DNA of 64,000 bases from a gamma proteobacterium SCGC AAA168-P09 (GCA_000385055.1 ARRL01000001.1:292934-356933); one strand, 5' to 3'. Positions 11,134-63,068 are shown, counted from the first letter of the stretch. Notes: generated by a model from the letters alone, not told the origin. Numbers and translations: made by a program.

Positions 11134-12368
11134 TAAAAAGGACTATAAGATTTGTATAGTTGGTTTGGGGTATGTTGGACTTCCTTTGGCGGCAAGATTT
11201 GCACTAAAGGGATTCAATGTAACCGGTTTTGATATAAAAGAAGAAAGAGTTAATCAGTTAAAAGATAATATTGATGTTAATAATGACATATCGAACAAGA
11301 ATCTAGAAGTTTTAAGTAAAAATTGCAATCTAACTTCAAAAATTGAGGAAATTAAAAAAAAGTAATATTTTTATAGTTACTGTTCCTACTCCAATAAATG
11401 AGGACAAAACTCCTGACTTAAGACCGCTTATAACGTCTAGTGAACTAGTCGGAAGTATAATTAAAAAAGGCTCAATAGTTATATATGAGTCCACAGTTTA
11501 TCCAGGAGTAACAGATGAAATATGCACTCCAATTCTAGAAAAAAAATCGGGATTAATTTTTAATAAAGAGTTTTCAACTGGGTATAGCCCTGAAAGAGTA
11601 GTTCCTGGAGATAAAATTAATACAATTGAAAAGATTAAAAAAGTCATTTCAGGTTCTAATATCGAAGCTTTAAAAATTATATCTTTTATCTATTCATAAA
11701 TTATAGAAGCTGGCATTCACGAAGCGCCATCAATTAAGGTTGCTGAAGCAGCAAAAGTTACTGAAAATATTCAAAGAGATGTGAATATTGCACTTATTAA
11801 TGAAATGCATCAACTTTATACTTCAATTGGTATAAATACTAATGATGTTATTGAGGCTGCATCAACTAAATGGAATTTTATGAAATTGATTCCAGGTATG
11901 GTTGGAGGCCATTGTATAAGTATTGATCCTTATTATTTGATGCATAAATCTGAAATATCAGGCTATAGCCCAAACTTGATGAGAACTGCTCGCAAAATTA
12001 ATGATGAAATGCATGAATGGGTTTTGAGAGATTTTATTAGATATATGGATCAGATGAATATTGATTTAGAGTCCACTGAAATAACAGTTTTTGGATATTC
12101 TTTCAAAGAAAATTGTTCAGATACAAGAAATACAAAAGTTAAAAACTTACTTTTATCAATGAGGGATTATAAAATTAAATTTCAATTATGGGACCCATTA
12201 ATCTTTGATCATGACCATAAAGAATTAAATGCACTAGGAATTAAAACTCTCAAGGATGAACCAAAAAATATTAAAGTTGTCTTGCTTTGTGTTAAACACA
12301 CACAATTTGAAGATTTCTTGAAGAAGTTTAATGGTGTTCTATACGATTATAAAACACCTTTGGAATAA
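11120..12368 (+). pseudogene. nucleotide-sugar (UDP-HexNAc, TviB/WbpO-type) dehydrogenase broken into three ORFs
   Basis: ORFs 11120-11365, 11343-11699 and 11781-12368 join into one protein (GLGYVGLP, IVTVPTP, YESTVYPG, SPER, KVAEAAK..EN.QRDVNIA, GGHCI). One extra A in the A8 run 11354-11361 shifts the frame; in-frame TAA at 11697-11699. Could be sequencing error. Confidence 0.8.
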
Positions 12369-36399: not shown

Positions 36400-36431
36400 G
36401 ATTTTAATTAAATTATAGGTATAATAATAAG

Positions 36432-38255
36432 ATGAAAAATACATTGATTTTAATGTTCAGCTTTCTTTTAACGGCATCTCTTAATTCTCAAGAACTAGAC
36501 TCAAGTTTCTTAGATAGTTTACCGGAAGATATTCAAAAAGATCTAATGGAAAAGAACTCCAAACAAGGCCTCAATTCTCAAGAAAATTACAAACCTTATC
36601 TTTACTCATCTAAGTTAAGCCAAACTGAAGAACTAATCACCCTTAAAGAAAGGTTGGAATTAGATCTAAAAGAGCTTGAAAGAAGATTAAGTTTTGATAA
36701 TGACTTCACTGTTAATGATGGTTTAAAGCTTTATGGCAGTGACTTTTTTAACACATTTCAAACTTCCTTTATGCCTACAAATGAACCAAATCCTGATTCA
36801 GATTATTTCTTAGATACTGGTGATGTCATAAATATTCAATTAGTTGGTCAAAAGGATAAAATTAATGACCATATTGTTGGTGGGGATGGATCTATTTCTT
36901 TAGAAGATATTGGTAAAGTAATTATAGCTGGAATGTCTTTAGGCGAAGCCTCATCGTTTATAAAATCAAAAGTAAATTCTGCATACATTGGTACTGAAGT
37001 TTTTATAAGCTTAAGTGAAATTAGGGATGTAAATGTATTGATAACTGGTAATGCAAAAAATCCTGGCATTTACACTTTGACAGGTAATTCTAATATCCTA
37101 CATGCTATATCTGCTGCAGGGGGAATAAGTGAGTTTGGATCTTATAGAGAAATTAATCTTATTAGAAATGATAAGGTTGTTGAATCTTTAGATGTCTATA
37201 AGCTATTAATCAATGGTCAATATAATCTAAAAAAACGCCTAAGATCTGGTGACGTAATTTTTGTTGAGGCTAGAAAATCCATAGTTGCTATTGATGGTGC
37301 TGTTTATAGGCCAGCAAAATATGAAGTTCTTGATGGACAAAATCTTGATAGCGTTATTGAATTTGCTAATGGTATTAAACGAACCGCAGACCTACAAAAT
37401 GTTTCTCTTGAAAGAATTCTTGATGGAACTTTGAAGACTATACCTATAGTCAATAAATCACAGTTCAAAACCATTACCGCATTGGATGGCGATCTAGTCT
37501 ATATTAGAGAACATCCTTACAGAGAGGCAAAAATTTCTGGTGCAGTCCTCAAACCAGGAAGCTATACTATGGCACCAAATGAAAGTCTTAACGATCTTAT
37601 TCAAAAAGCCGGTGGATACACAAATAATGCATATTTGTTTGGTGCTGTTTATATTAATGAAGATGCAAAAGAAATTAATAAGAAAGCTAAGGATATTTTG
37701 TATCAAGAATTTTTAGATAATATAATTTCAGTAAGTCAACAGAATATTAGTGAAAATTTTGATTTGACCCCAATTGTTCAACTTACTAAGGAAATTAAAG
37801 ATAATCAGTCTAATGGTAGGGTTGTTATAGATTTGCAAGATCAAGAAACTTTAGATCTTTACTCTGTGAAGGAAAATGATAGTTTATATGTTCCTGAAAC
37901 TAATAATGTGGTTTATGTTTATGGTGAGACTTCCATTGAGGGAGCTGTTATGTTCTCTGAAAATCAGACTGCAGAATATTTTATAAAAAAATCAGGAGGA
38001 TATAAAAAATATGCTGACAAGGAATCTATATATGTTCTTCATCCAAACGGAGAATCACAATTATTTTCAAGCAAAAGAAATATTTTTGAAAGCTCTCCAC
38101 AAAGTTCAACAACTATATATCCTGGCTCAATTATCTTTGTTCCTAGAGAGCTTGATGAAGCAACACCCAGAAGATTGGCAGCACAAGCTTATGTGTCTAT
38201 TCTTGGTAATTTAGGAATTGCTTTAGCATCTTTATCATCTATAAATAATAATTAG
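36432..38255 (+). CDS. SLBB-domain polysaccharide export protein (Wza/GfcE-like)
   Basis: Signal peptide, YG.DFF, L..GD.I.IQL.G, repeated G.V..PG/PA beta-grasp units, GS.IFVP. Confidence 0.82.
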   Translation: MKNTLILMFSFLLTASLNSQELDSSFLDSLPEDIQKDLMEKNSKQGLNSQENYKPYLYSSKLSQTEELITLKERLELDLKELERRLSFDNDFTVNDGLKLYGSDFFNTFQTSFMPTNEPNPDSDYFLDTGDVINIQLVGQKDKINDHIVGGDGSISLEDIGKVIIAGMSLGEASSFIKSKVNSAYIGTEVFISLSEIRDVNVLITGNAKNPGIYTLTGNSNILHAISAAGGISEFGSYREINLIRNDKVVESLDVYKLLINGQYNLKKRLRSGDVIFVEARKSIVAIDGAVYRPAKYEVLDGQNLDSVIEFANGIKRTADLQNVSLERILDGTLKTIPIVNKSQFKTITALDGDLVYIREHPYREAKISGAVLKPGSYTMAPNESLNDLIQKAGGYTNNAYLFGAVYINEDAKEINKKAKDILYQEFLDNIISVSQQNISENFDLTPIVQLTKEIKDNQSNGRVVIDLQDQETLDLYSVKENDSLYVPETNNVVYVYGETSIEGAVMFSENQTAEYFIKKSGGYKKYADKESIYVLHPNGESQLFSSKRNIFESSPQSSTTIYPGSIIFVPRELDEATPRRLAAQAYVSILGNLGIALASLSSINNN

Positions 38256-38262
38256 AATAAAG

Positions 38263-40208
38263 ATGAAAAAAAAAAAAATTTTATTAAAAAAAAGTTAATA
38301 TTAATTATTAGCTTTGCTAACTTTAGTTATACAGATAGCTTTGACAATAATTTTTATAACAACCATGGCTCAGTTGGCTTAATTAATACTCCAACAGCGA
38401 GATTTTATGATGAAGGAGTCCACGGTATCACTTTCTATGATGGAACTCCTGATCAAAAAATAACTCTCATATCAAATCCGTATGATTGGCTTGAAGCTTC
38501 TTTTTTTTATACAAATATTCAAGGGAAGCCCTATCCTGGATTTGAATTTCAGGATTATAAAGATAAAGGTTTTAATTTAAAGATAAGATTAAAAAAAGAA
38601 GGTTCTTTACCTGCAATTGCTATTGGGTTAAATGATTTTGCTGGAACTGGTTTTTATAGCTCTGAATACATTGTCTCTAGTTATGGAGTAGGAAATATTG
38701 ACATGCATTTTGGTCTTGGTTGGGGTCAACTAAATGGCACTAGTGACTTCAAGAATCCTTTAAGTTATGTACATGATAGTTTTTTAGATAGGCCAGCAGA
38801 AACCGCAGGTAGGGGAGGAGCATTTAATCCAAGCCAATATTTTTCAGGACCTAGTGTTTCACCCTTTTACGGTATTTCATACCGATTAAACAAAAATTTA
38901 TTTTTAAATTTTGAAAAAGATACAATACTCATTGATGGACCTAGAATGCCATATCCAGATAAAGAAAATGATTACTCTTTCGGTTTAAAATACAGCCTCA
39001 ATAAAAATTTATCATTAGGTTTGTCATATGAGCGCGGTAGTTATTTTTCCTTAGGCTTTGTTTATAAAAACGATCCAAGAGCAACAAAAAGCTATGAATA
39101 TCAAAAAGCAAATACGAGTGTTGGCGATAATAAGTACACTCAATTGATTAAGAATTTAGAAGAAAATGGTATTGGTGTAAATAAAATCACCGAAACCTCA
39201 CGATCACTTGGGCTGGAGTTAACACAATTCATTCATTCAGACATTGCATTAGTTGAACAAATTATTAAAGAATCTGGCAGGGATGCAGGAATTAATAAAA
39301 GTATAAAAAAAGATGTCAAAATTGCTAACTTATCTGCCGTTACAGAGATTGATGAATCATTTAAAAGGAATGCAAAAGTAATATACGAAAGAGATACTGC
39401 AAGAGTATTTAGTACAAATACAACAGCAAGATTTAGACCATTTTTTGCTTCAAGAGAAGAGTTTTTTAAAGGTGCTTTTTTATTGGAGAATGATTCAGAG
39501 TTTGTTCTGAAAGAGAATTTATTTTTTAACACGAATCTTAAATACAGCATAGCAAATAATTTTGATGATTTAAGATTTCCTCCGGTTGATACTTATCCAG
39601 CTCAAGTTAGGTCTGATATTAAACAATATTTAAAGAATATGGATAAAGGTATTTTGGTTGGTAGGGCTCAACTTGATTACCATCTAACACCAAAGAAGAA
39701 TCATCATTTAATGATTTCTGGAGGAATACTTGAGGATATGTTTTCTGGATATGGATTAGAGTATTTATATTTTAAGCAAAATACTAATTATGCCTATGGA
39801 TTTGAAGTTTTTAATGTACGCAAAAGAGACTATGATTGGGGTTTTGGTCATTTAGATTATAAAAATTTAACCTATAGTGCTAATTTATACTATAGGAATT
39901 ATGGCTCAATTCCTTTTGATATGAAAATTTCTGCAGGTGAGTATCTTGCAGGAGATTTAGGCTCAACTATTGAATTTAAAAGACAATTTTCTAATGGAGT
40001 AAGTTTTGGCGTATTTGCTACCTTCACAGATGTATCAACTGAACAATTTGGTGAGGGAAGCTTTGACAAAGGAATAATTTTTAACATTCCTATATATGGA
40101 AATTTTATAAATTACACTTGGAGGCCTTTAACAAAAGACCCCGGAGCAAAAATAATTAGAAAAAATTCTTTACATGATCTATTGGTTAAATTTCAACCCA
40201 TTAATTAA
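38263..40208 (+). CDS. YjbH-domain outer-membrane protein (GfcD-like); start codon out of frame by an A13 tract
   Basis: Frame of 38703-40208 is open without stops back to 38256 (G.VGLINTPTARF, PYDWLEASFFY, DYKDKG, DMHFGLGWG). ATG 38263 plus A13 is one base out of phase. Confidence 0.75.
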
Positions 40209-40247
40209 TTAATTCTTTTAATAGTTAATATTTTTAGTAGAGATTAA

Positions 40248-40271
40248 ATATATATATATATATATATATAT
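40248..40271. repeat. (AT)12 microsatellite, intergenic
   Basis: atatat... perfect 24-bp run upstream of the Ig-like surface protein. Confidence 0.95.
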
Positions 40272-40399
40272 TATGGACATTTTTAAACATAAATAAAATT
40301 TTTCTATACAAGACATATAAAGACATATATGTGCAATTATTATCGATAATTACATTGTTTTATTTAATTTTATGATTAATAATGTAGTAAAATTTTAAA

Positions 40400-42032
<1,633 letters not shown>

Positions 42033-42033
42033 T

Positions 42034-42110
42034 TGGTCGGGATGGCCGGATTTGAACCGACGACCACTACACCCCCAGTGTAGTGCGCTACCAGGCTGCG
42101 CTACATCCCG
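42034..42110 (-). tRNA. tRNA-Pro(GGG)
   Basis: Reverse complement CGGGATGTAGCGCAGCCTGGTAGCGCACTACACTGGGGGTGTAGTGGTCGTCGGTTCAAATCCGGCCATCCCGACCA (77 nt). Confidence 0.97.
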
Positions 42111-42146
42111 AATTGGAGTATTATATTCTCTATTTGGTAAAATATT

Positions 42147-43937
42147 ATGATTAGATTTAATTATGTTGTATTGACTAGTATTTTATTTATTGCATCTTAT
42201 ACTTTTGGTAATAATTATATAATTGAGTCTAGTTCTGGAATTATTAAGGGATATGTTAATAACAATGTTGTTCATTGGGATGATATTCCGTATGCAGAAC
42301 CCCCTATTGGTGATCTCAGATGGAAAGCGCCTAGAGAACTCAACCCATCTTCAAAAGAAAAATTTATAGAACCAAAAGAAAACAATTTTTGTGTACAGGA
42401 ACCATCAGGCCTTGGTGGATCAGATGGAATTGGTTTTTTTTCAGGAAATGAAGATTGTTTATATCTTGATATCAAAGCTCCAGCAACTAATATAAAAAAA
42501 CTACCTGTCATGTTTTGGATTCATGGTGGCGGCAATACTAGCGGTTTAAAAGATTTATATGATTTTTCTACTATGATTAAAAATCATAATGTTATTGTTG
42601 TTTCGATTAACTATAGATTGGGTCCTTTTGGGTGGTTTACACACCCTTCAATACAAAACATGCAGTCTGGTATAGATCAAACTTCTAATTTTGGTACCTT
42701 AGATATAATTCAGGCACTAAAGTGGGTGCAATCAAATATATCTTTATTTGGAGGAGATCCAAATAATGTTACAATTTTTGGTGAGTCAGCTGGTGGCCAT
42801 AATGTTTTATCTTTATTGGTTGCTAAACAAGCAAAAGGACTTTTTCACAAAGCAATATCACAATCTGGATATACCACAACATACTCAAAACAAGATGCCT
42901 ACAAGCCAAACAAAATTACATCTTCATCTAGATATTCAAGTTGGAGTATTGTTGATAAGATTATCAAAGATAAATCTTTAATAATTTCGCAAGAGGGCAA
43001 TGATAATAAAATTAGAGAATTATTAAAAAACCTACCTTCGGATGATTTTTTTAAATATTACTCAAAAAGACCTTCTTATGAAAATCTTCCAATACTAACC
43101 GCAGATAAAATTGTAATTCCAGAAATTGGTTTAAGTGAAGCTTTATCAAAAAAAGAATATGTTAATAACGTTCCATTAATAGCTGGATCAAACAGAGATG
43201 AAGTTAAATTATGGCTTGCATCAGCTAAATATTTTGTTGATTTAGATTATTCATTTCTTGGATCAATTCTTGGAGTGCCTAAAGTTTCTCTTAATGATAA
43301 AGATACTTTTAATCTTTTTAATTCTTATAGGAGTAGAGCATGGAAAATCAGAGGAGTTGATGATCCATTAAGAAGCTTATTCTTGGCTGGTAATAACGAA
43401 TTATATGCTTATAGATATGACTGGGATGACCATAGAAGGTTTATTATTGCTGACTTTAAAGAACTTATTGGCGCAGCTCACGCTACAGAGATCTCTTTAT
43501 TGACAGGAAATAATAAATTAGTTGGTGATTACGGCTTTTTAATTTACCCAAGAGGCCCATCAAAAAAATTTACTTCTAAAAATATGATGCAGTTTTGGAC
43601 TAATTTTGCAAAAACCGGCAAACCTGGTAAATCTACAAATGGTGTTGAATGGAAAAAATATGACGGACTAAAAAATATGCCTTCATATTATATGGTTTTG
43701 GATAAAAGAAGAGATCTTAAAATGCAATATGATAGCTTTTCATTTTCTTCTCTTATACAAGATTTACACAAAGAAGATGCTTTAAGTAGCTTAGAAAAAT
43801 GTGTTGTACTTCTTCAGGTATTAACATATGTTGGCGAGGATTTATATGATGAGTATGTTGATGAATATCCTGGTAATTGCAGCAGAAGTCAGTCAGAGCA
43901 ATTCCTACAAGATAACTCTAGCTTTATAGACTATTAA
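42147..43937 (+). CDS. type-B carboxylesterase/lipase family protein
   Basis: IPYAEPPIGDLRWKAP, EDCLYL, WIHGGG, GGDPNNVTIFGESAGG, GAAH..E. Confidence 0.93.
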   Translation: MIRFNYVVLTSILFIASYTFGNNYIIESSSGIIKGYVNNNVVHWDDIPYAEPPIGDLRWKAPRELNPSSKEKFIEPKENNFCVQEPSGLGGSDGIGFFSGNEDCLYLDIKAPATNIKKLPVMFWIHGGGNTSGLKDLYDFSTMIKNHNVIVVSINYRLGPFGWFTHPSIQNMQSGIDQTSNFGTLDIIQALKWVQSNISLFGGDPNNVTIFGESAGGHNVLSLLVAKQAKGLFHKAISQSGYTTTYSKQDAYKPNKITSSSRYSSWSIVDKIIKDKSLIISQEGNDNKIRELLKNLPSDDFFKYYSKRPSYENLPILTADKIVIPEIGLSEALSKKEYVNNVPLIAGSNRDEVKLWLASAKYFVDLDYSFLGSILGVPKVSLNDKDTFNLFNSYRSRAWKIRGVDDPLRSLFLAGNNELYAYRYDWDDHRRFIIADFKELIGAAHATEISLLTGNNKLVGDYGFLIYPRGPSKKFTSKNMMQFWTNFAKTGKPGKSTNGVEWKKYDGLKNMPSYYMVLDKRRDLKMQYDSFSFSSLIQDLHKEDALSSLEKCVVLLQVLTYVGEDLYDEYVDEYPGNCSRSQSEQFLQDNSSFIDY

Positions 43938-43944
43938 TTAAAAG

Positions 43945-44391
43945 CTAATTAATTATTTTCCCATTCTTTGAAGCATCTTTAATTTTAAGGACTTCTATGT
44001 CTTTTATTTTTATCATATCAGCAATTCTTCTAATAAGCCTTTCTTCATTTACTTCTAGTATTTTATCAGCGAATGCAACATCGTATAGGAATCGAATCAA
44101 GGAAAGTTTGTTGCCTTTAGAATAATCTTTATTTATATCATCTATAAATTCATAAAAAGAGACACTGTTCTTACTATACTTCTCTATGATTTCCAAAACC
44201 TTCTTTGGTTCTTTGCCAACTTTAGTACTAATTTTTTTTATTTCATCCAAAAGTATCGCAAGCTCAGGTTCTGAGATATCACCATCAGATCTAGCAATCT
44301 CATAAGCTAATATAGATGCAGTTAATTCTATATCAAAATCATTTTTATTTTCTTTGATTTCAGGCTTTTTTTTCTTAAAAAAATTAAACAT
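43945..44391 (-). CDS. TerB-like (tellurite-resistance family) protein
   Basis: L.YEIARSDG.I...E, L.DVAFAD..L...EERLIRRIA. Confidence 0.8.
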   Translation of the reverse strand: MFNFFKKKKPEIKENKNDFDIELTASILAYEIARSDGDISEPELAILLDEIKKISTKVGKEPKKVLEIIEKYSKNSVSFYEFIDDINKDYSKGNKLSLIRFLYDVAFADKILEVNEERLIRRIADMIKIKDIEVLKIKDASKNGKIIN

Positions 44392-45448
44392 TTTTAAATA
44401 ATCTCTTTTGGATATAATTATATCTATATGAAAACAGATAATAAGTTGTTGAATATATCATGAAAAGGTATGTCGAAATCCATGGATCAAAATAATTATC
44501 TAAGAATATACCCATTAAACCTGCAAAGAATGATAACAATAAAATAATTCCTAAAGCACCTTCTGATGAATAACGAAGCATCAGTTTATGATGGATATGG
44601 TCTCTGCCAGGGGACATAATACCTATACCTTGAATTATTCTTGAAAAAATAAGCCTAATACAATCAAGAAGTGGAATAGATACAAACCAAAGCATTGTAA
44701 TTGGCTCTACCTCATAAAGTGTGTTTTGTGATGAATAAATAGCAATCCAAGCAACCCAAAAACCTATTAGATTTGAGCCACTATCACCCAAAAATACGCC
44801 TCTTTTTTTACCGAAGAACCTTAGATTAAATATTAAAAAACCTATTACAGATCCAATCAGAATTATCATCATTGAATCATAGATTAGTCCTGAATAAAAA
44901 CCAGTGAATAATAATGCCATCATGGCTGAGCCAGCACACAAGCCATTGATTCCATCTATCATATTAAATGCATTCATTATTCCTACAACACAAAAGACTG
45001 TAATTGGAATACCAAAGATGCCTAAATTTATTTCACCAAAACCAAATAAATTACCAAAATTAGCTAAATATATATCTGTTGAATAAATTACATATAAACT
45101 CAATATAATTTGAATGAAAAGCCTAAACATGGGTTTCAAAGGCTTAAAATCATCAATTAAAAACAAAAGCAAAAGAGGTATAGAGGCTAAATATAGTCTT
45201 TGACTAAATTCAGGCAAATATCCTTTAAGATTATTAAGATTTAAATATATTTCTGAAGAAACAAGGACTGCTAAAAGTATACCAATACCTCCAGTAAGAG
45301 GCGTTGCTCTTTTATGAAATTTTCTGCTTCTATCAGGAATATCTACAAGTATATTATTTTGTTTAGCAAAGTTTCGTAATATAGAATTAATAGCTAAAGA
45401 TGCCATTATGCTTATAATTAAATAACTTATGATTATATTTAATTCCAT
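44384..45448 (-). CDS. MraY/WecA-family undecaprenyl-phosphate GlcNAc-1-P transferase
   Basis: D.PD..RK.HK..TPL.GG, IDD, NAFNMIDGINGL, FLGDSGS, H.HH. Confidence 0.9.
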   Translation of the reverse strand: MELNIIISYLIISIMASLAINSILRNFAKQNNILVDIPDRSRKFHKRATPLTGGIGILLAVLVSSEIYLNLNNLKGYLPEFSQRLYLASIPLLLLFLIDDFKPLKPMFRLFIQIILSLYVIYSTDIYLANFGNLFGFGEINLGIFGIPITVFCVVGIMNAFNMIDGINGLCAGSAMMALLFTGFYSGLIYDSMMIILIGSVIGFLIFNLRFFGKKRGVFLGDSGSNLIGFWVAWIAIYSSQNTLYEVEPITMLWFVSIPLLDCIRLIFSRIIQGIGIMSPGRDHIHHKLMLRYSSEGALGIILLLSFFAGLMGIFLDNYFDPWISTYLFMIYSTTYYLFSYRYNYIQKRLFKNV

Positions 45449-45541
45449 AAATGCTAATCTTACATCTTTGGCAACAAATAGTATGCACTTTGACCAAAAA
45501 AAATGTTTTTTAAAAAAACATTTGCATAAAAAATAAACACT

Positions 45542-56227: not shown

Positions 56228-57796
56228 ATGGCTGCCAATTTATCAACCACATCTAAACAGATAGATACCATTCTAGTTCTAGATTTTGGATCTCAATATA
56301 CACAGTTAATTGCAAGAAGGATAAGAGAGAGTAACGTCTACTCAGAAATACTGCCTTGGGATATTAATGAAGAAAAAATCAAATCAATTAACCCTAAAGG
56401 TATTATTTTGTCTGGAGGTCCAGACTCAGTTACGAATAGCTATACACCACGAGTTCCCCAAGTAATTTTTGATTTAAATATTCCCATTTTAGGTATTTGT
56501 TATGGAATGCAAACACTTGCAGAACAACTTGGAGGACAAGTTATTTCATCTGAGCAAAAGGAATTTGGATATTCAGAACTTAACATTACTGCAGATTGCA
56601 TATTATTTTCTGAATTGGGTAAAACGTTAAATGTATGGATGAGCCATGGAGATCAGGTGCAAGATCTGCCAGATAATTTTGATTTAGTAGCAGCAACATC
56701 TACCGCTCCAATTGCTGCAATGCAGCATACAAGCAAGCCTATCTATGCCTTGCAATTTCACCCTGAGGTAACTCATACAGAAGATGGTAAAACAGTCTTA
56801 GATAATTTTATTTTTAAAGTATGTGATGCAAAGACAGACTGGAAAATGGACGATTTAATAGGACAAAGAATTCAAGAAATTAAAAATCAAGTTCAAGATA
56901 ATAAAGTCCTGCTTGGTCTCTCGGGCGGAGTTGATTCTTCAGTCACTGCTGCACTTTTGCATCAAGCTATAGGCAAAAAGCTTGTATGCGTCTTTGTAGA
57001 TAATGGCTTATTAAGAAAAGGCGAAGCTGAAGAAGTTATGAATACTTTTAAAGAGAATATGAATTTAAATGTTATAAAGTCAGACAGTGAAGAGGTATTC
57101 TTAAGACATTTAAAAGATGTAAAAGATCCTGAACAAAAAAGAAAAATTATTGGGAGAACTTTTATTGATGTTTTTGATGCTGAGGCAACAAAATTAAAAG
57201 ACGTTAATTTTTTAGCACAAGGAACTATTTACCCTGACGTAATTGAATCTTCCGGTTCAGAATCTAAAGAAGCAAGGGTTATAAAATCTCATCATAATGT
57301 TGGCGGATTACCAGAAGAAATGAAGATGGAATTAGTTGAACCATTAAGAGACTTATTTAAAGATGAAGTCAGAAGAATGGGTGTTGAACTTGGCTTGTCA
57401 TCAGAAATGTTAAACAGGCATCCGTTTCCAGGTCCAGGTCTTGGAGTTAGAATTTTAGGAGATATTACCAAAGAGAAAACAAGAATTTTAAAAGAGGCTG
57501 ATCATATTTTCATAGAAGAGCTCTTAAAAGCAGATCTATATAAAACAGTTAGCCAGGCTTTCGCAGTTTATTTACCAATAAAATCAGTTGGTGTTGTTGG
57601 TGACGAGAGGAGATATGCTGAAGTTATAGCTCTAAGAGCAGTAGAGACAGTAGATTTTATGACTGCAAGATGGGCGCATCTTCCTTATGAGTTTTTAGAG
57701 CATGTATCTAATAGAATAGTAAATGAGATAGAAGAAGTTAGCAGGGTGGTCTATGACATCTCAAGTAAACCTCCAGCTACAATTGAGTGGGAATAA
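56228..57796 (+). CDS. guaA: GMP synthase (glutamine-hydrolysing)
   Basis: [58 protein letters not shown]. Confidence 0.98.
57779..57796 (+). repeat. att core copy 1 (natural guaA 3' end, ACAATTGAGTGGGAATAA)
   Basis: Last codons T-I-E-W-E-stop of guaA. Confidence 0.95.
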
Positions 57797-57857
57797 TGAG
57801 AAATTTTTAAAAAAAATATAAAATGTTTTTTTATTCAAATTTAAAGGAGGTAGAGAG

Positions 57858-58139
57858 ATGGAATTGAAACTAATATTTATGCTATCGAGTGATGTGGAAG
57901 TATCAGATACTGCATACGGACTAAACTTCAGAAAAGAAATCGAAGAGGTTTATGTTGGTGATACTTGGCAAGAGTGCTGCGATGAAGCATCTGATTATTG
58001 GGATTACGATACAACTATGTTTCCAACAGACGAAAATGGAGACATTGGAGATACTAGAAAAGACCTAATAAAAGTCCGTAAAAAAGTAGACTCAAATTGG
58101 GAAGAATACAGCGAAGAAGAAGAAGAAAAAAATTATTGA
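57858..58139 (+). CDS. hypothetical acidic protein, cassette 1 cargo
   Basis: 93-aa ORF with strong SD AAGGAGGT (57844-57851) 6 nt before ATG. Confidence 0.75.
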   Translation: MELKLIFMLSSDVEVSDTAYGLNFRKEIEEVYVGDTWQECCDEASDYWDYDTTMFPTDENGDIGDTRKDLIKVRKKVDSNWEEYSEEEEEKNY

Positions 58140-58272
58140 TTACTTCGACGAACTGTATGAAAAAAAAATGATGGCTGGTTAAATTGCAGTTTTGAAAAAG
58201 ACTTGTAAACTACTTGTAAACTCGATTTTGCCCCTCGTAAACCCTTGCTACATAAGGCTTTGTAAAAGGGTA

Positions 58273-58290
58273 ACTATTGAGTGGGAATAG
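58273..58290 (+). repeat. att core copy 2 (ACTATTGAGTGGGAATAG)
   Basis: 16/18 identical to the guaA 3' end; still reads TIEWE*. Confidence 0.95.
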
Positions 58291-58509
58291 TCGTTTTCCT
58301 CGCAAACCCCCATTCTTAAAGGGTTTAGCATTCTAAAAACAGTTACAAACTTGTTACAAACTCCTCTGTAGACTCCATTCCTTCGTAGCAGTTACAAACT
58401 TACTCGACTATTGCGATTCATTAAATGTTTTTAAGTATTACGTTTATTTATGTTGAACAAAAATACAAATTATAATAAGTTATATAATTAGATCCAATTC
58501 AAAAAACTT

Positions 58510-58998
58510 ATGAAAAAACTACTTCAAAAAACACAACTCACAATTCTATTATTTACAACTATTTTTTTTAGTACAAGTATATATTCTGAAGGTTGGTTGG
58601 ATAGTGATGGAAATTACCTTTCAATCATTAGAGCAAAAGAAGGTAACCGATTTGATGCTCAAGCATGGGCTCAGGTTAATCAGAGTATGAATTGTGAATT
58701 AAATGTCTTTCTTAACATGGATTCATTTAGCAATACTCTCCCAGCCATTATAGCAACAGTCAATGATGTTAGGGTTAGTTTTACATTATTTCTGAAGAGT
58801 GGAAATACAGCAGTTTATCAAGCGACATCTATTAAAGGCAGAAAATATTTCAAAGATCAGTTTTTTAAAAGCACCGCAGTAAACATAAAATTTTCCAATG
58901 GTGGTTTTGAAAGAGATAATTTAGTTTCAACGAAATATTTCACAGAAGCCTCAAATCATTTTGTTGAAGAATGCAGGAAAAAGGGCGAGATTCTATAA
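58510..58998 (+). CDS. hypothetical exported protein, cassette 2 cargo
   Basis: 162-aa ORF with N-terminal signal-peptide-like segment. Confidence 0.75.
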   Translation: MKKLLQKTQLTILLFTTIFFSTSIYSEGWLDSDGNYLSIIRAKEGNRFDAQAWAQVNQSMNCELNVFLNMDSFSNTLPAIIATVNDVRVSFTLFLKSGNTAVYQATSIKGRKYFKDQFFKSTAVNIKFSNGGFERDNLVSTKYFTEASNHFVEECRKKGEIL

Positions 58999-59256
58999 AT
59001 ATGCAAATATCAGTATTAAATATGCAATGTAGCTAATCGTGTAACTGACCTATTAATCTTTGCATACAACCCTTAGTAAATTTATAGTCCTCCTTAAGGT
59101 TACAATGTTTGTAACTCGGCATCTGCTAAAGTGTTGATATTACAAGGGTTTTGAGAGGTTATGACAGTAAGAAAAATAGGCAAGAGTTACAAAGTAGTTA
59201 CAAACTACAGAATGCCCCTTGTAAACCATTGTTCTTACAAGGTTTTTTATAACACT

Positions 59257-59274
59257 ACTGTTGAGTGGGAATAG
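59257..59274 (+). repeat. att core copy 3 (ACTGTTGAGTGGGAATAG)
   Basis: Reads TVEWE*; one change versus copy 2. Confidence 0.93.
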
Positions 59275-59696
59275 TTGTAAATAGCACGAAACCCTGTTCT
59301 ATAGGGGTTTAAAGCAATATAAAGTGTGACAAACTCTGTCATGGCAAAGAAAGAATGCGGGTTTCAGGGTACTAAAATCAAACATACGGCAAACTCTTGC
59401 TGCTATTGAAAGTCATAAGTTCATGACGTAATAATTAAACGAGATGATTAAAAATGAAAATTACTGCCAACAGAGAGGAATATTTTCTAAAGTGGATGCA
59501 GTGAGGACGGGATTAAATAATGTAATCAAAGACTACGAATTAACTACACTCGGAACGCAATAAAACAGTATTCGTGTTGGGAGAGGTGTTAGTCCTAATC
59601 ACCTTTTCAGTTGGGAGTAAAATTCAAGAACTCTTATATTTCAAAAATTCTTTAATTTATTATAGACTTGAGGTCTATTAATTAAAAAATGATGAC

Positions 59697-60302
59697 TTGA
59701 ATATGAATAAAATTTACATCTTCTTTGGATTGATTCTTCTTGCCTCTTGTGCCCCCCTCAATGAAGTCCCCTCTAGAAACCTCGTTGAAAGAAATGGAAT
59801 CAAATACGAAATTAACTCCCAAACACCTTTTACTGGTATTTCTGTTAGTTCATGGAACAATGGTCAATTAGGAAAAAAACAAACCTACAAAGACGGAAAA
59901 CTAGACGGACTTTCTGAGAGGTACCTCGAAAACGGTCAATTGTTTTGGAAAACAACCTACAAAAACGGAAAACAAGACGGACTTTTTGTGGAGTATTATA
60001 TGAACGGTCAATTAGCATCTAAAAATATCTTCAAAGAAGGAAAAGTAGACAAATTTTGGGAGGATTATTGGATAAATGGTCAATTAGAATCTAGAACAAC
60101 CTACAAAGACGGAAAAGAAGACGGACCTTTTGAGACCTACTACGAGAACGGTCAATTGAAATCTAAAGGAAACTACAAAGACGGAAAACAAGACGGACTT
60201 GTGGAGAGATACGACGAGAACGGTCAATTGAAATCTAAAGGAAACTACAAAGACGGAAAACAAGACGGACTTGTGGAGAGATACGACGAGAACGGTCTTT
60301 AG
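59697..60302 (+). CDS. MORN-variant repeat lipoprotein (YwqK-antitoxin-like family), cassette 3 cargo; likely ATG 59703
   Basis: Lipobox LASC; repeated ENGQL..K.TYKDGK.DG..E.Y units. Confidence 0.82.
   Translation: MNMNKIYIFFGLILLASCAPLNEVPSRNLVERNGIKYEINSQTPFTGISVSSWNNGQLGKKQTYKDGKLDGLSERYLENGQLFWKTTYKNGKQDGLFVEYYMNGQLASKNIFKEGKVDKFWEDYWINGQLESRTTYKDGKEDGPFETYYENGQLKSKGNYKDGKQDGLVERYDENGQLKSKGNYKDGKQDGLVERYDENGL
60142..60297 (+). repeat. exact 72-bp tandem repeat (about 2.2 copies) in the MORN-repeat gene
   Basis: ACGAGAACGGTC starts at 60142, 60214 and 60286 with identical intervening sequence. Confidence 0.95.
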
Positions 60303-60667
60303 AATTCTTCTAGAAACGGTTGATACGCAGATATGTCTTTCTGCGAGAAATAATTAGTCATCCCCTTGTTGAAGAGGAGGTGTGTTCATCAAATTAAACT
60401 TGTATGAACACTTTTATTCAATTTGTAAGTATTGTATTTAATGGGGTTCTAGAGACTCTATATTTGATATTTTATAGGGGCATTGATGAAGACAATTTTT
60501 CTATTATTGAGTATGAATAAGGTGGTTTTATAGAGACTATCTTTGTCACAAAATAGGTTAAAATGAGGAAGATGATAGTAAAAACACAAAACAGTCATGA
60601 CAAACTTATGACAAACTATTTTTTTCATCTCTGTATCCCTTTTTTTATAAGGGTTTAAAATATTGCA

Positions 60668-60685
60668 ACTATTGAGTGGGAATAG
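60668..60685 (+). repeat. att core copy 4 (ACTATTGAGTGGGAATAG)
   Basis: Identical to copy 2. Confidence 0.95.
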
Positions 60686-60915
60686 ATTGTCGCCCTACAA
60701 CCCCCATTCCTACAATATTCTATAGTTACACGATAGTTACTAAGTCCTTGTAACTAAAGCATTCCTTAATTCGAGTTACACGAAATCTCCACTATTGCAA
60801 TCTAATAGAAGGCAACGCCTATTTAGGTATGATTTTAAAGAAAGAATCCATATATTATGCTGGAATTTATATGGTACTGAGGGCGAAAAATAGGAATAAA
60901 ATAACTCTCTATAAT

Positions 60916-61323
60916 TTAAGCAAAGATTTGAGAATAAGCCATATAAGCAATAATTAACCACCCAGTCACAAAAATACCAAATCGTACCACTACTATATTA
61001 AATGTTAATTGCCATAGTGAATGGACAATTCTTAAAATTACATATACCCATGCCAATTGAATCATTAAAGCATCAAAATTATTTATAATGGCAATGCATA
61101 TCGTAAGTGCATAAAATGCAACCGGCTGCTCAAAAAGATGATTGTAATTATCTGAAGTTCTTTCCACCCAAGCAGGCATTAATCCTCTTAAGTCTTTTGT
61201 ATGGGCTGCATCCTTCTGCGGATTTTTAGTGTATTTAAATCTGCCATAAGCCATTATTAAAAAAATAGTAAAAGTCCAAAGTACTAAAACCAATACCGGT
61301 GTTAAAAGTGCTGTCTGATTCAT
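60916..61323 (-). CDS. MAPEG-family membrane protein, cassette 4 cargo
   Basis: R...NYNHLFEQPV.FY, LAW.YV.LRI.HS, three to four TM segments. Confidence 0.85.
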   Translation of the reverse strand: MNQTALLTPVLVLVLWTFTIFLIMAYGRFKYTKNPQKDAAHTKDLRGLMPAWVERTSDNYNHLFEQPVAFYALTICIAIINNFDALMIQLAWVYVILRIVHSLWQLTFNIVVVRFGIFVTGWLIIAYMAYSQIFA

Positions 61324-61559
61324 AATTTTTTCCTCTACCTTATTAACAATAACAGAGATGTAAATATTTGAAAAGGGTATGTTTGGAGTAGGGCATTAAG
61401 GTTACAATGTTTGTAACTTACAAGTCGCTAAGTTACTGATACAACAGAGGAATTGGTTTAATGGGTAGAACAAAAAAAGAAGGTAAGAGTTACACGAAAG
61501 TTACACGCTTTTATTTTCGTGCTTGTAGCCCTTTGTCTATACGGCTCTATAAATCAGCG

Positions 61560-61577
61560 ACTATTGAGTGGGAGTAA
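61560..61577 (+). repeat. att core copy 5 (ACTATTGAGTGGGAGTAA), right boundary of the array
   Basis: Reads TIEWE*; followed after 12 bp by the NCS2 permease stop codon, with no arm motifs beyond it. Confidence 0.93.
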
Positions 61578-61589
61578 ATTCTTTCTAAA

Positions 61590-62891
61590 TTAATCTAGCA
61601 CAATAAATTTTAATAAGAAAATTAAAAAAAGAAACCAGGCTCCAAAACTAATATCTGATTTTTTTCCTGCAGCAAATTTAAGCACAACGTAACTAATAAA
61701 CCCTATAGCTATTCCATTGGCTATAGAGAAGGTTAAAGGAATCATAATAATCATAATTAAAGCTGGCAATAGTTCGGTATTATCCGACCAATCAAGTTTC
61801 TCCATGCCGCCTAGCATTAAAATTGCAACATAAATAAGAGCCCCTGCTGTTGCATAACTTGGAACCATAGATGCAAGAGGTGAGAAGAAAATTGCTATTA
61901 AGAAAAATATACCTACTGTTATTGCAGTTAATCCCGTTCTTCCGCCAGCCTCTACACCTGCTGAACTCTCAACATAACTTGTAACAGGCGAACAGCCAAA
62001 AAATGATCCAGCAACACTGGCAGTGCTATCGGCCTTTAAAGCCCTATCAAGATTTTTTATTTTTCCCGATTCATCTATCAAGTTTGCTCGAGATGCAACA
62101 CCAAGTAGGGTGCCAGCAGTATCAAATAAATTAACAAAAAGAAAAGAAATAATAACGCTTATCATTGCAACGTCTAATGCTCCAACAATATCTAATTTCA
62201 TCAACGTTGGCATCAAATCTGGTGGAGAAGAAACGAAGCCATTAAAATTAATTAACCCAAGCAATAACCCTGAAATAGTAACAGTGAGAACTCCAATGAT
62301 TATCGCACCAGTTACTTTTCTTATAGCCAGTATTAAAATCAAAAGAAAACCAACAGCTGCAAGCAAGGTTTCAATATTTTTAAAATTACCCATACTTAAA
62401 AAAGTTGCTTCATTTTGAATGATAATCCCACCTGTTTTTAAGCCAATAAAACCCACAAATAAGCCAACACCTGCTCCCATAGCAATCCTAAGATTCATAG
62501 GAATACTATTAAGCATCCACTGTCTTAAGGGAGTAACGCTGATGATTACAAATAAAATACCAGCTAAAAAGACTGCTCCAAGAGCTACCTCCCAGGAATA
62601 ACCCATTTCTCCAACAACTGTATAAGTAAAGAAAGCATTTAACCCCATCCCTGGAGCTAAACCAACAGGCCAGTTTGCATAAAGACCCATTGCAAAACAT
62701 GCAATAGCAGCAGCAATGCATGTTCCAACAAAACTTGCTCCATAATCCATGCCACTTGATGCCATCATTTGTGGATTAACAAAGATAATGTAAGCCATTG
62801 TTATAAAAGTGGTGAAACCAGCTAAGAATTCTTGTTTAATGGAAGTGCGGTTTAATTTAAGCTGAAAGGTTTTTTCTAAAAATTTTTCCAT
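61590..62891 (-). CDS. NCS2/AzgA-family purine permease
   Basis: E..AG.TTF.TMAYIIFVNP, LAPGMGLNAFF, FVNLFDT.GT, TSYVES.AGV.AGGRTGL. Confidence 0.93.
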   Translation of the reverse strand: MEKFLEKTFQLKLNRTSIKQEFLAGFTTFITMAYIIFVNPQMMASSGMDYGASFVGTCIAAAIACFAMGLYANWPVGLAPGMGLNAFFTYTVVGEMGYSWEVALGAVFLAGILFVIISVTPLRQWMLNSIPMNLRIAMGAGVGLFVGFIGLKTGGIIIQNEATFLSMGNFKNIETLLAAVGFLLILILAIRKVTGAIIIGVLTVTISGLLLGLINFNGFVSSPPDLMPTLMKLDIVGALDVAMISVIISFLFVNLFDTAGTLLGVASRANLIDESGKIKNLDRALKADSTASVAGSFFGCSPVTSYVESSAGVEAGGRTGLTAITVGIFFLIAIFFSPLASMVPSYATAGALIYVAILMLGGMEKLDWSDNTELLPALIMIIMIPLTFSIANGIAIGFISYVVLKFAAGKKSDISFGAWFLFLIFLLKFIVLD

Positions 62892-63068
62892 AATTTTACT
62901 AGATTATAATTTACATAATCATTCTACAATGCATAATGTTAGATTACTTAACATACTTGCTCTTTACACCATTTTTTGGCATGTAAATTGCTTTTTATAA
63001 TAATATAAACAACTTAATTATGTGCTGCACTAAAGTTTTTACCATAAGCACAAGGGGATATTAAACCA

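Follow-up and report, generated by a model that had tools for sequence, protein, structure and literature searches.

A probable tandem array of non-autonomous integrative cassettes at the 3' end of guaA in a SAR86 genome

Organization of the guaA locus

The DNA analyzed here (hereafter, the window) is a 64-kb stretch from the gamma proteobacterium SCGC AAA168-P09, which is placed in the SAR86 cluster by its guaA gene, and the subject of this work is a predicted array of small gene cassettes that lies between the 3' end of guaA (GMP synthase) and a gene for an NCS2-type permease (Table 1). The 10-mer TTGAGTGGGA from the guaA terminus is found, exactly and on the plus strand, at positions 57783, 58277, 59261, 60672 and 61564 and nowhere else in the window, compared to 0.08 copies expected by chance, and five copies were not reached in any of 100 shuffles. 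Each copy belongs to an 18-nt unit (hereafter, the core) that translates as T-I/V-E-W-E-stop, and the copy-to-copy spacings are 494, 984, 1411 and 892 bp. Because each bounding core copies the guaA terminus, every insertion leaves guaA intact. All three tRNA genes in the window are located 15-44 kb away from the array.

The cores have a clear internal structure. Copies 2-4 share the pattern ACT[A/G]TTGAGTGGGAATAG; copy 2 is a perfect inverted repeat, ACTATT / AATAGT, flanking the 7-bp spacer GAGTGGG, and copies 3 and 4 each show one mismatch to this arrangement. The first four cores have the element-side ending GGGAA-TAR and the fifth ends with GGGAG-TAA. The sequence 3' of the fifth core is the one that follows guaA in the empty sites of two relatives (L001 and L114; loci are labelled L### and integrase proteins P#### throughout), and these relatives read GGGAG TAG where core copy 1 reads GGGAA TAA. 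The outer core halves thus represent an element side and an empty-site side, so that the ends of the array fit simple integration.

The five cores delimit four cassettes of 0.5-1.4 kb, 3.8 kb in total, each with a single main cargo gene. In the Pfam scan of the cargo, the 201-aa protein of cassette 3 matches MORN_2 (E 5e-25) and the 135-aa protein of cassette 4 matches MAPEG (E 1.9e-21); the 93-aa and 162-aa proteins of cassettes 1 and 2 have no Pfam match, and exact-protein look-ups of the cargo of cassettes 1 and 3 returned no record. About 350 bp of cassette 3, between the left arm and the MORN gene, contain no long open reading frame (ORF). The MORN gene itself consists in part of five head-to-tail 72-bp units at 59853-60350, and its product is 201 aa long in the window and 160 aa in locus L113, so the number of repeats seems to vary.

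A first-pass annotation of the window, made from the sequence alone, had described the fivefold recurrence of the guaA terminus with its reading frame and spacings, the cargo types with one main gene per interval, and the guaA and NCS2-type permease flanks. Exact matching reproduces the repeats, with the difference that the starts given in that annotation lie 4 nt upstream of the 10-mer, and Pfam bears out both the MORN and MAPEG assignments and the flanking genes.

Table 1. Features of the guaA-permease region of the window (positions are counted from the first nucleotide of the window)
Feature	Coordinates	Strand	Description
guaA (GMP synthase, 522 aa)	56228..57796	+	Pfam GATase (E 6e-50) and GMP_synt_C (E 3e-43); last 18 nt are core copy 1
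Core copy 1	57779..57796	+	ACAATTGAGTGGGAATAA; attL-type junction; left half guaA, right half (GGGAA TAA) cassette 1
Cassette 1	57797..58272	+	acidic 93-aa ORF at 57858-58139; right-arm tandem CTTGTAAAC at 58202 and 58213
Core copy 2	58273..58290	+	ACTATTGAGTGGGAATAG; perfect inverted repeat
Cassette 2	58291..59256	+	162-aa ORF at 58510-58998 with a signal-peptide-like N-terminus
Cassette 2, left arm			short inverted repeat; GTTACAAAC at 58342, 58353 and 58391
Cassette 2, right arm			palindrome GGTTACAATGTTTGTAACT at 59098-59116; tandem GTTACAAAG/GTTACAAAC at 59186 and 59197
Core copy 3	59257..59274	+	ACTGTTGAGTGGGAATAG; cassette 2-cassette 3 junction also in single-cell genome L113
Cassette 3	59275..60667	+	MORN-repeat lipoprotein at 59697-60302
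Cassette 3, left arm			inverted repeat GAAACCC..GGGGTTT; TGACAAAC at 59327
Cassette 3, right arm			tandem ATGACAAAC at 60597 and 60608
Core copy 4	60668..60685	+	ACTATTGAGTGGGAATAG
Cassette 4	60686..61559	-	MAPEG gene at 60916-61323, minus strand
Cassette 4, left arm			GTTACACG at 60725 and 60775
Cassette 4, right arm			palindrome at 61400-61418; tandem GTTACACG at 61489 and 61500
Core copy 5	61560..61577	+	ACTATTGAGTGGGAGTAA; attR-type junction; right half and downstream DNA match the empty sites of L001 and L114
NCS2-type permease	61590..62891	-	Pfam Xan_ur_permease (E 1e-46); conserved right-hand neighbour

Arm architecture of the cassettes

Upstream of core copies 2-5, a related 78-nt sequence, the right arm (P), is present with 62-72% identity between copies. 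It includes a tandem of short repeats that are spaced by 11 bp, and in each of the four cassettes the second unit begins 63-64 bp ahead of the core. The repeated sequence differs between the cassettes, namely, CTTGTAAAC in cassette 1, GTTACAAA(G/C) in cassette 2, ATGACAAAC in cassette 3 and GTTACACG in cassette 4, and the variant found in the right arm of cassettes 2, 3 and 4 recurs in the left arm (P') of the same cassette. The arm repeats, including ATACAAAC, TTACAAAG, GTTACAAAC, TGACAAAC, GTTACACGA and CTTGTAAAC, are variants of TnACAAA, and several of these are confined to the array within the 64 kb (GTTACAAAC, 6 of 6 occurrences; GTTACACG, 5 of 5; CTTGTAAAC, 3 of 3; TGACAAAC on the plus strand, 3 of 3). 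A full cassette accordingly consists of a left arm, one cargo gene and a right arm, bounded by the 18-nt core. The statement of the first-pass annotation that the cassettes have related non-coding ends is supported by the 78-nt family, and as a claim on all the cassettes it applies to both arms in cassettes 2-4 and to the right arm only in cassette 1.

A core inverted repeat combined with phased arm repeats on both sides is the layout of lambda-type attP sites, in which a heterobivalent tyrosine integrase binds both core and arm sites. The array shows inverted half-sites around an overlap in the 6-8 bp range, duplicated at both ends of the units, in five direct copies, and arm repeats at fixed positions on both sides of the core, except on the left side of cassette 1. 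No tyrosine integrase is encoded in the array or elsewhere in the window, and integrases are present in sibling elements at the same site (see below); hence, the units in the window are non-autonomous derivatives rather than full members of the lambda type.

Two further observations pertain to the non-coding sequences. The 23-bp motif TTAAGGTTACAATGTTTGTAACT opens the right arms of cassettes 2 (59094-59116) and 4 (61396-61418). Only weak folds were obtained for the short inverted repeats that adjoin the core (Z -2.6 and -1.9; the others are not significant), and no function is assigned to them; an Rfam scan of 57600-61800 yielded no family match, and the scans for promoter-like sites (21 against 16.8 expected) and terminator-like sites (1 against 2.0 expected) were uninformative.

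Variation of the site among SAR86 relatives

Strains that are near-identical to that of the window differ at the site. Four contigs (L112-L115) encode an identical GuaA protein, and L001 was compared as a fifth locus; in blastn comparisons, guaA of the window is 99.5% identical to that of L112 and L113 and 96% identical to that of L001. In L114 and L001, the site is empty; L112 contains only cassette 1 (99.6% identical); the single-cell genome L113 contains cassette 2 (98.5%) and a 4.7-kb version of cassette 3 and lacks cassettes 1 and 4; and in L115, a different left arm is followed by the end of the contig. The comparison of related genomes proposed in the first-pass annotation thus gives the predicted outcome, that is, empty sites and cassettes that vary in number, order and cargo but have the same ends. 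On the permease side, window positions 61560-62993 are 88-90% identical to L001, L112 and L113, compared to 96-99.5% for guaA, so there is a sharp change in relatedness at the array.

Across 52 SAR86-type loci from genomes and metagenomes, some of which might be redundant, 38 fully bounded cassettes of 168-4721 bp belong to 22 families, with none to four bounded cassettes per array in shuffled orders. The arm design recurs as well: of the 34 distinct sequences found ahead of a core, 28 have the 11-bp-spaced tandem, and the right-arm motif recurs in the left arm of the same family in 8 of 15 families, compared to 9 of 194 cross-family pairs. The MAPEG cassette, which is the fourth in the window, is the first in L314, L315, L317-L320 and L324, where the order is guaA-MAPEG-cassette 2, and the second in L322. 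The locus is, then, a site-specific modular array that is variable in the population.

Cargo-less mini-cassettes were observed as well, one of 211 bp between cores in L317 (8649-8870) and one of 168 bp in L326 (1682-1860) that consists solely of fused cassette-4 arm sequence. Locus L316, in which no guaA is present within 8 kb of the MAPEG cassette, was considered as a candidate second integration site; however, two further cores precede the cassette, and L316 is more likely to be the far end of a long array. Several metagenome contigs (L236, L241, L242 and L360-L362) end no more than a few bases from the guaA stop codon, and two more (L244 and L246) end 70-80 bp past it, which fits assembly breakage where co-occurring cells differ.

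Since many contigs end at the guaA stop, the locus is hard to assemble, and one could ask whether the array is an artefact in which cassettes of different strains were chimerically joined through the shared repeat. The junctions between cassettes 1 and 2, between cassettes 3 and 4, and between cassette 4 and the flank are indeed found only in the window. The junctions of guaA with cassette 1 and of cassette 2 with cassette 3, however, recur in independent assemblies, one of them from a single cell, and multi-cassette arrays of the same design are present in many independent genome assemblies, which makes an artefact highly improbable; furthermore, the exactly shared repeat, at 14-18 nt, is too short to mislead the usual assemblers.

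Spread of integrase-less cassettes between species

The whole MAPEG cassette, including the arms, is 96-98% identical in eight other loci, and this level of identity is retained where guaA is only 71-80% identical to that of the window. For cassette 2, the identity is 98% in L113, L324 and L325, and guaA of L324 is 79.6% identical. The MAPEG coding sequence contains a single variable column out of 408 among nine copies, and the index of the assembly collection lists exactly the same protein for 238 blocks. Integrase-less cassettes have therefore spread across species, and given that the same cassettes are found in other SAR86 species in different orders, the guaA terminus appears to be a shared docking site for the swapping of single genes. 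Because the neighbours on each side vary between genomes, the high identity starts and stops at the cores; this pattern is the strongest argument that it is the integrase-less form itself that moves.

Some of the observations could instead point to homologous, RecA-dependent exchange after DNA uptake, with the arms, the core and the guaA end serving as portable homology and no dedicated integrase involved. The chimeric cassettes in L313 and L321 switch from cassette-4 to cassette-2 sequence exactly at TTAAGGTTACAATGTTTGTAACT, that is, with a crossover within this 23-bp motif; right arms that belong to separate cassette families match at 94-96% over some 160 nt; and guaA is 99.5% identical to that of L112 and L113, compared to about 89% for the right flank, so that recombination does act in the region. 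As an account of the array, however, homologous exchange appears improbable. Where a cassette directly follows a guaA that is only 71-80% identical, the shared homology on the left hardly extends beyond the 18-nt core; the breakpoints lie exactly at the cores on both sides; and neither the arm design nor the site-specific integrase family described in the next section would have a role.

A guaA-specific integrase family in relatives

Between positions 102 and 50445, 42 ORFs reach 130 aa, and the Pfam scans covered 40 of these (the other two lie within or across other features) and showed housekeeping and polysaccharide genes only; the genes at 50.4-56.2 kb match annotated housekeeping genes in L112. 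In these comparisons, no recombinase was detected in the array or elsewhere in the window. Together with a profile built from 109 members of the integrase family described below, which also found no trace of this family in the other integrase-less arrays, this agrees with the first-pass claim that no tyrosine or serine recombinase is encoded in the array or the window. An initial profile, seeded with the integrase of the genomic island GIsul2 (17 sequences), matched integrases located beside guaA in Pseudomonas, Porticoccaceae and others and was null in SAR86. This null result was a false negative because the profile missed a genuine integrase in L358, and for this reason the 109-sequence profile was rebuilt and the window was scanned with Pfam.

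In the SAR86 locus L358, guaA is followed by the core, a left arm with ATA(T/C)AAAC repeats and a 409-aa integrase ORF (motif LISTNTCMRVGELRQLTWGDIE) that is cut by the end of the contig. This protein has 294 homologues, mostly of 417-436 aa, several of which are annotated as 'integrase' in the source and several of which have precomputed matches to PF00589, PF13102 or PF20172. Integrase-bearing elements at the same site were identified in L358, L364-L371 and L379-L385, and the genes of the three members that were looked up (P0134, P0162 and P0171) are in each case separated from the guaA stop by 150-165 bp, across several host backgrounds. Thus, a dedicated integrase family exists at the guaA site, and the first-pass notion of guaA as a platform for cutting and insertion is substantiated to the extent that relatives encode such a family at exactly this site.

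The only parent element with mapped ends is that of P0134, which measures 4426 bp from core to core. Its left arm (CATACAAACTTCATACAAACT) is followed by the integrase gene, then by a gene for a serine resolvase (PF00239, E 1.5e-36), by three small ORFs and an acetyltransferase gene, and finally by the right arm (CATACAAACTTCATACAAAGT). The same protein and gene set are found at guaA in three host backgrounds, in loci with 36% and 42-43% GC, and integrase-less cassettes of 368-3857 bp follow the element. A matching left arm is present in the other integrase-bearing loci, and the repeats of the P0162 element (CTTACAAAGTCATTACAAAG) are close to those of cassette 2 of the window. The resolvase gene directly follows the integrase gene both in the P0134 element (L364-L371, 11287-11898), with a 4-nt overlap, and in the P0162 element (L379-L381), with a 2-nt gap, and in the P0171 element a second small PF00589 protein takes the place of the resolvase.

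Probable origin and proposed mobility of the cassettes

Several loci link the cassettes to the integrase-bearing elements. In L330, a left arm that is 79% identical to that of cassette 4 of the window is followed by the N-terminus of an integrase at the contig end. L378 contains, in 6924 bp, a left arm of the cassette-4 type, a 78-aa integrase stub, RND efflux genes and a right arm of the cassette-4 type, and in L372-L377 a 94-aa integrase stub is located just after a left arm of this type. The 79% identity to the cassette-4 left arm thus applies to arms ahead of an integrase stub as well as to those ahead of an integrase gene. Over 112 nt, the left arm in L115 matches that of L358, a locus with an integrase gene, at 82% identity. 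The cassettes are flanked by att sites, encode neither an integrase nor an excisionase and are related to autonomous elements at the same site, as is characteristic of cis-mobilizable elements (CIMEs). On these sequence comparisons, the cassettes are probably integrase-less derivatives of small guaA-specific integrative elements. The first-pass description of minimal att-flanked, non-autonomous cassettes stands as far as the units are variable and shared at 96-98% identity across species, and is to be amended in that they appear to derive from integrase-bearing elements.

Internal deletions are apparent as well. Compared to the L113 version, cassette 3 of the window lacks about 2.1 kb that are bounded there by two copies of a 137-bp stretch (59486-59622 in the window), and contains 132 bp where the L113 version has 1.2 kb; the 168-bp cargo-less cassette in L326 was formed between two GAGTTACACGAAA repeats. 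Together with the integrase stubs in L378 and L372-L377 and the incomplete arms in the window, such deletions are what would be expected if the cassettes were inert fossils, that is, separate integrations that later lost the integrase and became immobile by site-specific recombination, with the differences between strains produced by deletion between repeats and vertical inheritance. We consider this unlikely. The same integrase-less MAPEG cassette, with the same ends, is present in at least nine loci with guaA 71-98% identical, in position 1, 2 or 4 and next to differing neighbours; its gene is nearly invariant, and independent decay would not repeat one product; and vertical descent cannot yield 97% identity beside 75%. 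The first-pass annotation itself had named decay of a large island with integrase remnants as one of the observations that would refute it. The remnants exist, whereas the one mapped parent is only 4.4 kb long and it is the integrase-less forms that have spread.

Accordingly, the array is likely to consist of four integrative cassettes, none of them autonomous, that have docked in tandem at the guaA 3' end of a SAR86 bacterium. Under the mechanism that we propose, autonomous elements would lose the integrase gene and so become cassettes; the integrase of an autonomous sibling would then, in trans, excise the cassettes and insert them at any core copy; and the cassettes would pass between cells by a route that might involve virions or vesicles. 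Mobilization in trans, which the first-pass annotation also proposed, is an inference drawn from the arm design that the cassettes share with the integrase-bearing elements, from the spread of the integrase-less forms and from the experiments on GIsul2 that are discussed below.

Several observations weigh against this interpretation. No circular or excised junction was found for any cassette, and three of the five junctions in the window (the same three that bear on a possible assembly artefact) were not seen in other assemblies. The 109-member profile had no match in the window, which is the part of this genome that was covered, even among the stop-to-stop segments of at least 30 aa, and three members of the integrase family match PF00589 below the gathering score (E 2e-4 to 1e-3), so that the family is a divergent one among tyrosine recombinases. 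Among the database relatives of the integrase N-terminus associated with the GTTACACG arm type, there are only fragments of 76-147 aa and no full-length protein; the integrase proper to this arm type may therefore be rare or extinct. Within the MAPEG cassette, variation is greatest in the arms, with 20% and 9% variable columns compared to 0.2% in the gene, although this variation is largely due to two arm haplotypes rather than to random decay. Cassette 4 of the window lacks 12 bp, equivalent to one GTTACACGAAA repeat, and no left-arm repeats are recognizable in cassette 1. Given the variable arms and these losses, some of the cassettes are perhaps no longer substrates.

Relationship to known systems

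Among known systems, GIsul2 of Gammaproteobacteria, with its CR2-sul2 unit, comes closest to the SAR86 array, but its integrase is not detectably related. The GIsul2 integrase, a tyrosine recombinase, uses GAGTGGGA within the guaA 3' end as its site, catalyses recombination between any two att copies, and excises and integrates the internal CR2-sul2 unit, which has no integrase of its own; tandem units at the guaA att site have been reported (PMC9376610). GIsul2 is an island that carries int, alpA, replication, transfer-related, toxin-antitoxin and arsenic-resistance genes in addition to the CR2-sul2 unit (PMC9376610). The target and the core are the same, with GAGTGGGA contained in the SAR86 core. 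However, the SAR86 integrase and the GIsul2 integrase are not significantly similar (blastp E 0.035); tblastn searches with the GIsul2 Int and AlpA proteins found nothing in the window or the SAR86 loci; and, in contrast to this gene-rich island, the SAR86 units are 0.2-7 kb long, mostly single-gene and for the most part lack an integrase.

A similar accretion of elements is known in Streptococcus, where CIMEs related to ICESt1 and ICESt3 occupy the 3' end of fda. These CIMEs are att-flanked, lack recombination genes, arise from autonomous elements and form tandems; they are thought to be moved by the integrase of a sibling, and are few, several kb in size and tied to conjugative elements. The similarity lies in att-flanked tandem units at the 3' end of a protein-coding gene. 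The difference is that in SAR86 there are dozens of families of cassettes of about 1 kb that are common to several species, and no conjugation genes were seen.

In the additive flexible genomic islands of the streamlined Methylophilaceae, the repeat corresponds to the last 20 nt of tRNA-Lys, and islands range from 330 bp to 42 kb (PMC10872708). In additive and tycheposon islands, successive integrations push the older elements inward, and the cargo is mostly of unknown function (PMC10872708; bioRxiv 10.1101/2020.12.28.424599). As in these islands, integration-target repeats recur through the variable region of the SAR86 locus, but the target is the protein-coding guaA rather than a tRNA gene. 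The features that define tycheposons, namely, a tRNA-gene target, partial tRNA repeats and hallmark integrase and replication genes, do not apply to the SAR86 array, and no hallmark tycheposon genes were found in it.

With integrons, the SAR86 locus shares a fixed chromosomal platform on which small cassettes from a common pool, most of them with a single gene, are lined up in order. It differs in that intI, attI and Pc are all absent beside the array and in that the cassettes end in direct repeats of the guaA terminus, accompanied by lambda-type arms, instead of in attC palindromes; given that intI, attI and attC are all missing, the locus is not an integron. The SAR86 cassettes are inserted in either orientation and retain 60-250 bp upstream of the gene and therefore probably carry their own promoters. 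The terms 'P4-like' and 'integron-like' used in the first-pass annotation are thus analogies only.

The VEIMEs are small marine integrative phage satellites found in virions; some subgroups encode a tyrosine integrase together with a serine recombinase, and about 20% lack an integrase (PMC9618062). The integrase-resolvase pairing is the same as in the guaA elements, but neither SAR86 nor guaA is mentioned in that work (PMC9618062). Scans of IMG/VR with the core plus stop codon, the arm repeats, two arm consensus patterns, SAR86 guaA and P0134 detected no element of the SAR86 type, and the matches obtained are guaA ends of unrelated bacteria or due to chance. Two viral contigs of 108 and 203 kb with a GC content of 0.38-0.40, L334 (IMGVR_UViG_3300033273_000460) and L340 (IMGVR_UViG_3300033273_000374), contain a core that resembles the guaA terminus (caccgcaACTATTGAGTGGGAGTAA) and, upstream of it, an 11-bp-spaced tandem (GTTAGAAAC TT GTTAGAAAA) similar to that in SAR86 right arms. 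The sequences of these contigs part some 18 nt beyond the core, and the narrow GIsul2-seeded profile found no integrase in their stored flanks.

Taken together, these comparisons indicate that the process is the same as in the known systems but miniaturized, with single-gene units of about 1 kb that mostly lack an integrase and are common to several SAR86 species. A search of the literature on SAR86 guaA, integrases and genomic islands retrieved no description of the locus, the arm architecture, the sharing of cassettes or the integrase family.

Other features of the window

Outside the array, the window contains a region of surface-polysaccharide genes at 11700-32000 and 36400-45500 that looks like a replacement-type flexible island. 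The encoded proteins include Wzz, a CMP-sugar cytidylyltransferase, a DegT aminotransferase, NeuB, a polysialyltransferase-like protein and a flippase, as well as glycosyltransferases, sugar dehydrogenases and the Poly_export and YjbH export proteins. The GC content reaches 0.40 at 16-23 kb, the AT skew is negative at 24-27 kb, and genes for tRNA-Cys and tRNA-Leu are located at 13.2-13.7 kb. The ORF at 11781-12368 encodes a UDP-glucose dehydrogenase without the N-terminal domain.

Implications for gene exchange in SAR86

SAR86 bacteria are among the most abundant uncultured heterotrophs of the surface ocean and have small genomes that are poor in classical mobile elements, so that gene exchange in this group is an open question. 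The guaA locus offers a testable, one-site answer, with a fixed dock where an essential gene ends, att sites of a defined design, an integrase family as the candidate enzyme and a cross-species pool of cassettes, as exemplified by the identical MAPEG gene in genomes in which guaA differs by 20-29% from that of the window. In practical terms, the guaA-to-permease interval provides a marker of strain-level diversity and explains assembly breaks.

More tentatively, and as a possibility to which we assign less than even odds, SAR86 may run a form of integron-like sharing in which cassettes of about 1 kb that lack an integrase but retain complete arms are shuffled in trans by a few integrase-plus-resolvase elements at the guaA terminus and cross species boundaries, perhaps in virions or vesicles. 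The array extends the tandem accretion of integrative elements to a miniaturized, integrase-poor form with integron-like behaviour and a different recombination design.

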